64,000 bases of DNA from Escherichia coli (GTDB lineage Bacteria; Pseudomonadota; Gammaproteobacteria; Enterobacterales; Enterobacteriaceae): the NCBI RefSeq assembly GCF_030013205.1, contig NZ_CP122648.1; one strand, 5' to 3'. Shown piece by piece: positions 39,301-42,300 of the stretch (position 1 is the first letter of the stretch; each line of letters starts with the position of its first letter). Position numbers: made by a program.

Positions 39301-42300
39301 TTCGCCGCGCCAATGATACCGACTACGGTCTGGCGGCGGGTATCGTGACGGCGGACCTGAACCGCGCGCATCGCGTCATTCATCAGCTGGAAGCGGGTAT
39401 TTGCTGGATCAACACCTGGGGCGAATCCTCTGCTGAGATGCCCGTTGGCGGCTACAAACACTCCGGCATTGGTCGCGAGAACGGCGTGATGACGCTCCAG
39501 AGTTACACCCAGGTGAAGTCCATCCAGGTTGAGATGGCTAAATTCCAGTCCATATTCTAACCAGGAGGTTTATTTGCAATTTGACTACATCATTATTGGT
39601 GCCGGCTCAGCCGGCAACGTCCTCGCTACCCGTCTGACTGAAGATCCGAACATAACCGTGCTGCTGCTTGAAGCAGGCGGCCCGGACTATCGCTTTGACT
39701 TCCGCACCCAGATGCCCGCCGCGCTGGCATTCCCGTTACAGGGTAAACGCTACAACTGGGCCTATGAAACGGAACCTGAACCGTTTATGAATAACCGCCG
39801 CATGGAGTGCGGACGCGGTAAAGGCCTGGGTGGATCGTCGCTGATCAACGGCATGTGCTACATCCGTGGCAACGCGCTGGATCTCGACAACTGGGCGCAA
39901 GAACCTGGCCTGGAGAACTGGAGTTATCTCGACTGCCTGCCCTACTACCGCAAGGCCGAGACTCGCGACGTGGGCGAGAACGACTACCACGGCGGTGATG
40001 GCCCGGTGAGCGTCACCACCTCCAAACCCGGCGTCAATCCGCTGTTTGAAGCGATGATTGAAGCGGGCGTGCAGGCGGGCTACCCGCGCACGGACGATCT
40101 CAACGGTTATCAGCAGGAAGGTTTTGGCCCGATGGATCGCACCGTCACGCCGCAGGGCCGTCGCGCCAGCACCGCGCGTGGCTATCTCGATCAGGCCAAA
40201 TCGCGCCCTAACCTGACCATTCGTACTCACGCCATGACCGATCACATCATTTTTGACGGCAAACGCGCGGTGGGCGTCGAGTGGCTGGAAGGCGACAGCA
40301 CCATTCCGACCCGCGCGGCGGCGAATAAAGAAGTGCTGTTATGTGCAGGCGCGATTGCTTCACCGCAGATCCTGCAACGCTCCGGCGTCGGCAACGCTGA
40401 ACTGCTGGCGGAGTTTGATATTCCGCTGGTGCATGAATTACCTGGCGTCGGCGAAAATCTTCAGGATCACCTGGAGATGTATCTGCAATATGAGTGCAAA
40501 GAACCGGTTTCCCTCTACCCTGCCCTGCAGTGGTGGAATCAGCCGAAAATTGGTGCGGAGTGGCTGTTTGGCGGCACCGGCGTTGGTGCCAGCAACCACT
40601 TTGAAGCAGGCGGATTTATTCGCAGCCGTGAGGAATTTGCGTGGCCGAATATTCAGTACCATTTCCTGCCAGTGGCGATTAACTATAACGGCTCGAACGC
40701 AGTGAAAGAGCACGGCTTCCAGTGCCACGTCGGATCGATGCGCTCGCCAAGCCGTGGGCATGTGCGGATTAAATCCCGCGACCCGCACCAGCATCCAGCG
40801 ATTCTGTTTAACTACATGTCGCACGAGCAGGACTGGCAGGAGTTCCGCGACGCAATTCGCATCACCCGGGAGATCATGCATCAACCGGCGCTGGATCAGT
40901 ATCGTGGCCGCGAAATCAGCCCCGGTGTCGAATGCCAGACGGATGAGCAGCTCGATGAGTTCGTGCGTAACCACGCCGAAACCGCCTTCCACCCGTGCGG
41001 TACCTGCAAAATGGGTTATGACGAGATGGCAGTGGTTGACGCCGAAGGCCGCGTACACGGGCTGGAAGGCCTGCGCGTGGTAGATGCGTCAATTATGCCG
41101 CAAATTATCACCGGCAATTTGAACGCCACGACGATTATGATTGGCGAGAAAATGGCGGATATGATTCGCGGGAAGGATGCGTTGCCGAGGAGCACGGCGG
41201 GATATTATGTGGCAAATGGGATGCCGGTGAGAGCGAAAAAATGAGTCGTGATGTGAACTGACTCAGGAACCTATCAGATTGAGAGTTACCGTTCTACTAT
41301 GAGGACCGAATCCTTATATAAAACACTGAGGTAACTCTCATGCTTCATATCCAGTATTCATGATGCTGGTTTTTTGCTGATATTTAACCCGAACACTCCT
41401 GATACAGCCTATTAATTCATTTATCTGCGGCAGATTTTATTTTCTGGATATATTATGAGTGAACAAATCAAACAGGATATCGATCTGATTGAGATTTTAT
41501 TTTATCTGAAGAAAAAGATTCGTATTATCCTTTTTATTATAACTATCTGTATGGCAATGGTGCTGTTGTTTCTGTATATCAATAAAGATAATATAAAAGT
41601 GAGTTACAGCCTAAAAATAAACCAGACAACACCAGGCATACTTGTTAGCTGTGATAGCAATAATAACTTTGCCTGTCAGACCACAATGACTGAAGATGTT
41701 ATTCAGCGAATTACTACATTTTTTCAGACCAGCCCAGATGTCAAGAACAGAGAAATAAAGCTGGAATGGTCAGGAGATAAGAGAGATTTACCAACTGCTG
41801 AAGCGGAAATATCTCGCGTGCAGGCGTCTATTATCAAATGGTATGCGTCAGAATACCATAATGGCAGGCAAGTTCTCGATGAGATACAAACGCCTTCAGC
41901 AATTAACAGTGAGCTTTATACAAAAATGATATATCTGACCAGGAACTGGTCATTGTATCCGAACGGTGATGGCTGTGTAACTATAAGCTCACCAGAAATA
42001 AAAAATAAATACCCTGCTGCCATTTGCCTGGCTCTGGGATTTTTTCTAAGCTTTGTAATTTCTGTAATGTTTTGCCTTGTCAAAAAAATGGTAGATGAAT
42101 ACCAACAAAACTCTGGGCAGTAATAAACAGCATTCTGATAGAGAGTGCCTGTATAAAGCTGAAGTGACAATGACCGGGAAGGGAACCCGTTTTCAGGAAT
42201 GGATGCCTGTCTTTTTCACTGTAAATATCCTGGCATTACTAATGCCAGGATATTTACAGAAGAGCAGCATAACCATGACGGAACGGGGTTAAGTCAGGTT

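Follow-up and report, generated by a model that had tools for sequence, protein, structure and literature searches.

The bet locus of the window

The window analysed here, a 64,000-nucleotide stretch of Escherichia coli DNA (assembly GCF_030013205.1, contig NZ_CP122648.1), carries the bet genes in the order betT (minus strand), betI, betB and betA, followed by ykgH. The betIBA operon opens with betI and closes with betA. The coordinates of the genes, of the signals between betB and betA and of the elements considered as candidates are collected in Table 1.

Assignment of the betA product as choline dehydrogenase rests on an equivalog score, on domains and a cofactor motif, and on the betT/betI-betB-betA context. 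Against the NCBIfam equivalog TIGR01810, BetA scores 1026.7 bits (cut-off 732.1), with profile positions 1–532 covering residues 4–537, and in the longer subfamily model NF002550 it is position 4 of the model that aligns to residue 1. The Pfam domains GMC_oxred_N (PF00732) and GMC_oxred_C (PF05199) span residues 3–300 and 393–524, respectively, and the FAD-binding GxGxxG motif is present as GAGSAG at residues 9–14. As the profiles begin at residues 1–4 and are followed by GAGSAG at 9–14, no downstream start could yield a functional enzyme. The upstream neighbour, BetB, scores 913 bits against its own NCBIfam equivalog, NF009725.

The junction between the two genes reads TCC ATA TTC TAA CC AGGAGG TTTAT TTG CAA TTT GAC TAC ATC ATT ATT GGT GCC GGC. 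The Shine-Dalgarno (SD) sequence, AGGAGGT, can pair over all of its 7 nt with the 3' end of 16S rRNA. The initial annotation gave the distance to the TTG as 6 nt from AGGAGG and 14 nt from the betB stop. Both figures hold when counted to the first T of the codon, from the last G in one case and from the last base of the stop in the other; the spacer itself is 5 nt and the intergenic gap 13 nt, so that the close spacing of betB and betA is borne out. The betI-betB junction is built alike, reading TAA CCGAGGAGACGTG ATG, also with a gap of 13 nt.

Table 1. Coordinates of the betIBA genes and of the features at the betB-betA junction, in window positions.
Feature	Position	Strand	Remarks
betI, first gene of the betIBA operon	37487..38074	+	annotation transferred
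betB, betaine-aldehyde dehydrogenase CDS	38088..39560	+	490 aa, ATG start; RefSeq annotation transferred
Predicted imperfect hairpin, candidate mask of the ribosome-binding site	39510..39576	+	-19.3 kcal/mol (ViennaRNA); not statistically distinguished
betB last 12 codons, low synonymous variation	39522..39557	+	47 Enterobacterales loci
In-frame upstream TTG inside betB, rejected start	39529..39531	+	mechanical ORF 39529..41244 opens here
betB stop TAA	39558-39560	+	
betA Shine-Dalgarno AGGAGGT	39563..39569	+	AGGAGG = 39563-39568; onset 2 nt past the betB stop
Spacer TTTAT, 5 nt	39569-39573	+	
betA initiation codon TTG, decoded as fMet	39574..39576	+	K-12 b0311 and RefSeq, orthologue alignment, INRI-seq
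betA, choline dehydrogenase CDS	39574..41244	+	556 aa plus stop; TIGR01810 and Pfam

Assignment of the betA start

The TTG at 39574 had been singled out as the only codon that fits the BetA N-terminus, and this reading is upheld. The betA frame holds no ATG from 39529 until about residue 77, and between 39529 and 39574 it holds no further canonical start codon; an ATG at 39534 belongs to the betB reading frame. The assignment of the start to this TTG agrees with the K-12 and RefSeq annotation and with the ATG found at the aligned codon of orthologues. It is further backed by the onset of the profiles within 3 residues, by stop codons upstream of the start in orthologues and by a published initiation peak seen in 5 of 5 replicates, each of which is described below or above.

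The first comparison proposed at the outset was with the 5' end of betA in K-12. In MG1655, betA (b0311, NP_414845.1) is annotated on the complement strand at 325577-327247 with a TTG start at 327247, and betB terminates 13 nt upstream of it. K-12 and the window share this TTG, the AGGAGG, the 13-nt gap and the flanking betT, betI, betB and ykgH. Every base is the same from -74 to +47 around the start, and over the 141 nt compared the single difference is at a synonymous site downstream, leaving the junction without differences; the two BetA proteins differ by a few amino acids further into the protein. The codon in K-12 is thus TTG and not ATG. In addition, a stretch of 601 nt across the junction matches several genomes at 100%, mostly porcine ETEC-type strains; of 5426 complete E. 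coli genomes, 5179 contain the stretch. In one of the genomes identical over all 601 nt compared (NZ_CP028192.1), RefSeq has betA begin at locus position 2775, which corresponds to window 39574. The TTG start of betA is therefore already known; it is the standard reference annotation, correct but ordinary.

The initial annotation also allowed that the true sequence might carry ATG at this codon. Nothing was found in favour of such a reading, in which the TTG would stem from a sequencing error or be peculiar to the strain, and it fails on the identity of the K-12 junction and on the records of the species. Of 5183 E. coli records with the locus, 5181 have the stop-SD-TTG core (a 33-nt query) exactly, while the remaining 2 do not match it; as the search used megablast with a 28-nt exact word, every match to the 33-nt query has the SD and the TTG unchanged. 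At least 5107 of the 5183 records match a longer junction query of 61 nt at 100% identity, and queries in which the start was substituted by ATG or GTG found no exact match in any of them. The same TTG also occurs in 33 loci of other genera, and the probability of an artefact is negligible.

The open frame itself begins further upstream, at the in-frame TTG at 39529 inside betB, the left coordinate given in the initial annotation. Initiation there would give a protein of 571 aa with a 15-residue N-terminal extension, and the codon has in its favour that no other canonical start codon of the frame precedes it. It is, however, preceded by no SD, the extension adds nothing to the BetA profile matches, and Citrobacter and Trabulsiella loci have TCG in its place. 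In many orthologues that start with ATG, an in-frame stop (TGA or TAA) directly precedes the ATG, which rules out a longer N-terminus in those proteins, and both K-12 and RefSeq place the start at 39574. The upstream TTG is effectively refuted as the start of betA, and initiation from it is highly improbable.

Other elements were sought around the junction. An internal promoter serving betA only was considered and rejected, as the 4 promoter-like matches in the region compare with 3.5 expected from shuffles and are not evidence for one. Two overlapping promoter-like matches have a common first hexamer at 39529. Terminator-like matches around the junction were not commoner than in shuffles, and an Rfam search over 37000-41600 returned no match at E <= 1.

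Start codon and spacing across genera

A scan for BetA with one genome per species returned 80 loci. The codon aligned with window position 39574 is TTG in 33 of these, from at least 7 other genera: the TTG loci belong to Pseudocitrobacter, many Enterobacter, Lelliottia, Leclercia, Huaxiibacter, the Klebsiella oxytoca group, Raoultella, and Citrobacter amalonaticus and sedlakii. A GGAGG core lies 5-6 nt upstream of the TTG in all 33 loci of other genera. Similarly, the gap between the betB stop and betA is 13-14 nt in every one of the 33 TTG-type loci with upstream sequence (the window and 32 others). Judged by this conservation, both within E. coli and in the 33 loci of other genera, the arrangement of SD, spacer and TTG exceeds chance.

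In 16 Enterobacterales loci the aligned codon is ATG, and the gap to betB ranges from 12 to 28 nt. The genera of this type are Trabulsiella, Pluralibacter, Cedecea, Pantoea, Kosakonia, Tatumella and Rosenbergiella. The Trabulsiella gene starts ATG CAA TTT, encoding MQFDY. In Pseudomonas and Moraxella, betA starts at an ATG that either is the aligned codon or lies one or two codons further upstream. A neighbour-joining tree of BetA has ATG as the ancestral state and a single gain of TTG, basal to the Citrobacter/Klebsiella/Enterobacter/Escherichia clade; only Trabulsiella and Pluralibacter show apparent reversions to ATG. From the alignment and the tree, the betA TTG is an old and retained codon, and clearly the homologue of a bona fide start codon.

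A comparison of the SDs in TTG-type and ATG-type relatives gave no clear signal that the betA SD compensates for the TTG, because the ATG-type relatives also carry strong SDs (GAGGAGGA, CGGAGGTG).

Ribosomes initiating at the TTG in vitro

Ribosome profiling with initiation inhibitors and N-terminal proteomics were the other checks proposed at the outset. For the former, published data exist: in INRI-seq, a synthetic E. coli transcriptome was translated in a cell-free system in the presence of retapamulin (Hör et al. 2022, PMC9825163). A T7 leader, the 30 nt that precede the annotated start, the start codon itself and 50 further codons make up each of the transcripts (PMC9825163). The b0311 oligonucleotide, TCCAGTCCATATTCTAACCAGGAGGTTTAT-TTG-CAATTT..., is the same as the window from -30 to +47 nt around the start (PMC9825163 Table S6).

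The five replicates gave peaks of 104.8, 89.4, 84.6, 69.7 and 91.3 CPM at the betA start (327247), which was scored as identified, with a peak in 5 of 5 (PMC9825163 Table S2). The mean of 88 CPM came from a transcript present at 55.6 CPM, and the ATG of betB gave a mean of 43 CPM from a transcript at 97.3 CPM (PMC9825163). Across replicates the betB site ranged over 29-52 CPM, its transcript being about 1.75 times more abundant than that of betA (PMC9825163). The list of non-annotated starts holds no b0311 entry (PMC9825163 Table S3).

INRI-seq peaks carry a positional tolerance of +/-3 nt, so that an out-of-frame ATT at 39572 is compatible with the betA peak by position alone; ATT is a far weaker codon and would have a spacer of 3 nt. 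The betA TTG combines homology to the start codon of orthologues with a well-spaced SD and with initiating ribosomes, the last of these published and in vitro.

In vivo, the Ribo-RET value for betA in rich medium is 0 (copied in PMC9825163 Table S2). This zero presumably reflects an operon that is not induced in rich medium. As to an N-terminal peptide of BetA, there was no b0311 or betA entry among the TRAINSPOTTER N-terminomics rows listed, and a literature search on the betA TTG start or on N-terminal sequencing of BetA returned nothing relevant. A search for quantitative proteome data on the BetA:BetB ratio was equally fruitless.

Possible coupling of betA to betB

In addition to the start codon, the initial annotation proposed that translation of betA depends on coupling to betB. 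In its strict form, this means that the native ribosome-binding site of betA stays silent until a ribosome translating betB either unfolds a hairpin or reinitiates across the 13 nt, with the weak UUG suppressing uncoupled initiation. Both RNA unfolding and reinitiation are established models elsewhere (PMC12548453).

The structural element that such a mechanism would use is a predicted hairpin, in which the betA SD and UUG are paired with betB codons. Here, CCAUCC at 39520-39525 would pair with GGAGG at 39564-39568, and CAGGUGAA at 39510-39517 with UUUAUUUG at 39569-39576. In contexts of +/-100 nt or more, ViennaRNA predicts the SD to be unpaired with a probability of about 0.2 and the UUG with one of about 0.05. 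Conservation of the core pairs across 19 sequences, among which a Citrobacter locus shows a single compensatory change from G-C to C-G, speaks for strict coupling. Against it, the stability of the hairpin is no greater than that of shuffled sequence (z = -1.64; 13 of 200 shuffles fold as well), and with a z of that size the hairpin is not claimed as a real element. Opening the betA ribosome-binding site would cost about 12 kcal/mol, which is near the values for betB (10.0-11.1) and betI (12.5-15.0), and this similarity also argues against strict coupling.

Codon usage at the end of betB adds a second observation in favour. The last 12 codons have a mean synonymous codon entropy of 0.57 against a gene mean of 0.99 (47 loci), the minimum of all 12-codon windows in betB and betA (lowest 0.1%). 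Such low synonymous diversity is compatible with the RNA-unfolding model, although it is not specific to that model.

The spacing of the genes can be read in both directions. The narrow gap of the TTG-type loci, set against the wider range of the ATG-type loci, speaks for strict coupling; TTG had essentially a single origin, however, so that phylogeny confounds this association of gap length with start codon. For termination-reinitiation, a gap of -8 to +10 nt is taken as predictive, while gaps of 11-20 nt were variable and were set aside as gene-specific (PMC10666635). The betB-betA gap of +13 nt falls in this second range. In E. coli, a gap of +14 nt cuts reinitiation by 40-80%, and independent initiation was considered likely where a short gap includes an SD (PMC10666635), both of which weigh against strict coupling. 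In favour of coupling, the betA SD begins 2 nt past the stop and is thus covered by a terminating ribosome, which in closely spaced pairs has to clear the site to make room for the next 30S subunit (PMC12548453).

The strength of initiation at betA in vitro also argues against strict coupling. As only 30 nt of upstream sequence is present on the INRI-seq transcript, initiation at betA there needed no translation of betB. The same transcript is without the 5' arm of the hairpin, and a need for betB on the native mRNA is therefore not probed by INRI-seq. The proposal that betA depends on coupling is accordingly unsupported as it was put, and its strong form is contradicted in vitro; strict coupling on the native mRNA is unlikely. 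A partial contribution of betB to the translation of betA is plausible, given the 13-nt gap, the predicted though statistically undistinguished hairpin and the low synonymous variation at the end of betB.

A more elaborate reading combines these features into a conserved device for stoichiometry, built from the retained UUG, an invariant GGAGG set 2 nt past the stop, a fixed gap of 13-14 nt, and pairing of the SD and UUG with constrained betB codons. If it were true, synthesis of BetA would be tied to that of BetB and kept below it, such that the enzyme producing the aldehyde never outruns the enzyme removing it. The device would have had a single origin, basal to the BetA clade of Escherichia-Enterobacter-Klebsiella-Citrobacter, and would have been maintained since. 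We regard it as rather improbable.

Proposed mechanism

The locus is best explained as an ordinary junction within the E. coli betIBA operon, that of betB and betA, at which the UUG at 39574 and its SD very probably recruit ribosomes unaided, and coupling to betB likely modulates initiation and is not required for it. Where the start lies, how it is annotated, that it is conserved and that it is used in vitro are established. Here, the UUG would be read by initiator fMet-tRNA, with the 7-nt SD, AGGAGGU, and the 5-nt spacer positioning the ribosome on it, and the SD and start codon would suffice for de novo recruitment.

Two further events may take place on the native mRNA. As the SD begins 2 nt past the betB stop, a terminating ribosome would cover the betA site, and on termination it could release its subunits directly onto that site. 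In addition, ribosomes on the last ~17 codons of betB may melt any local structure in which the SD and UUG pair with betB sequence. It is thus likely that coupling to betB makes some modulating contribution. We infer this contribution, as we do any adaptive reason for keeping the UUG.

Beyond annotation, the significance is small: the reference start of betA is right, and automated pipelines should neither 'repair' its TTG to ATG nor extend the gene to the upstream TTG. For engineering of the choline-to-betaine pathway, a change of TTG to ATG is the obvious lever for higher BetA output. The gene also offers a modest, testable case of a near-cognate start kept across genera at an operon-internal junction, and it suits the question of whether near-cognate starts set enzyme ratios, given the toxic aldehyde intermediate.

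Comparison with known systems

Coupled gene pairs such as MS2 coat-lysis and rpmI-rplT (PMC12548453) share several features with betB-betA. In each, the genes are co-oriented and lie in one operon; the betB-betA junction further resembles them in having the downstream SD inside the footprint of the terminating ribosome, and a ribosome-binding site predicted to pair with the upstream coding sequence. Pairs that rely on reinitiation typically overlap by -4/-1, whereas the betB-betA gap is +13 nt. Unlike coupled pairs, the betA ribosome-binding site works in vitro without upstream translation, and the stability of its predicted structure is not significant.

Of the three canonical start codons of E. 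coli, UUG serves ~3% of genes, and in reporter assays it yields 10-100% of the output of AUG (bioRxiv 10.1101/063800). Among prokaryotes, UUG starts tend toward replacement by AUG, and genes with UUG more often have a strong SD (PMC5622118). The betA start is like those of canonical UUG-initiated E. coli genes, with a near-cognate codon, fMet-tRNA and a strong, well-spaced SD. While UUG starts generally drift to AUG (PMC5622118), the UUG of betA persists in several genera with two apparent reversions; this retention is mildly notable, and by itself is no evidence of regulation.

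Possible nucleotide-level constraint at the 3' end of betB

Synonymous codon diversity was compared across all 12-codon windows of betB and betA, using a sample of 47 Enterobacterales loci. The minimum falls in the last 12 codons of betB, a stretch in which no more than about 8 codons could be scored; the windows overlap one another. Within this stretch, for example, the codons TCC ATC CAG are unvaried in 19 aligned close relatives, and of these three only ATC is fully invariant over the 47 loci. The sequence comparison suggests that the last 12 codons of betB are under nucleotide-level constraint, which would be imposed by the overlapping betA initiation region.

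Two overlapping promoter-like matches are present just 5' of the betA Shine-Dalgarno (SD) sequence. As the region holds four such matches, compared to 3.5 in shuffled sequences, there is no excess over the shuffles and the two matches are probably due to chance.

Features of the bet operon (window coordinates)
Feature	Position	Strand	Detail
Segment compared with Pseudocitrobacter vendiensis	37075-41230		betT 5' end, betI, betB and betA
First ATG of the betI ORF	37469	+
SD-like sequence between the betI ATGs	37475-37478	+	GGAG
Second ATG of betI	37487	+	annotated start in RefSeq and K-12
betI-betB junction	38072-38090	+	TAA CCGAGGAGACGTG ATG
GTG immediately 5' of the betB ATG	38085	+
Annotated betB ATG	38088	+
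Last 12 codons of betB	39522-39557	+	minimal synonymous diversity
Promoter-like matches	39529-39558	+	TTGAGA-16-CATATT and TTGAGA-18-TATTCT; each 9/12

Start regions in the operon and in relatives

The betI-betB junction has the same design as that between betB and betA: the gap is again 13 nt and the SD begins 2-3 nt past the stop codon. A GTG directly adjoins the annotated betB start. In cell-free initiation profiling with retapamulin (INRI-seq), an alternative in-frame ATG of betB, at +9 nt (codon 4), gave a weak signal of 8.6 CPM in two replicates (Table S3 of PMC9825163). For betI, which has an upstream in-frame ATG and an intervening SD-like sequence, the same study found no initiation at the annotated start (0 CPM in 5/5 replicates; PMC9825163).

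Several relatives in the cross-species BetA comparison have ATG at the betA start codon, and here the start is preceded by GGATGA or CGATGA (loci L034, L038, L043, L045, L029 and L042). In these loci the betA ATG directly follows an in-frame TGA, and another ATG, out of frame, lies 4 nt 5' of the true start.

Distribution and kinship of the bet cluster

Among the 5426 complete E. coli genomes searched, 247 lack the betB-betA junction, and the same search returned 10 plasmid-borne copies. Over 4.16 kb, the bet cluster shares 93.2% nucleotide identity with that of Pseudocitrobacter vendiensis, compared to 86% with Enterobacter and approximately 81% with Klebsiella, Citrobacter and Trabulsiella. 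In a tree of BetA, E. coli nests with Pseudocitrobacter, and the bet locus may have been exchanged laterally between the two lineages.
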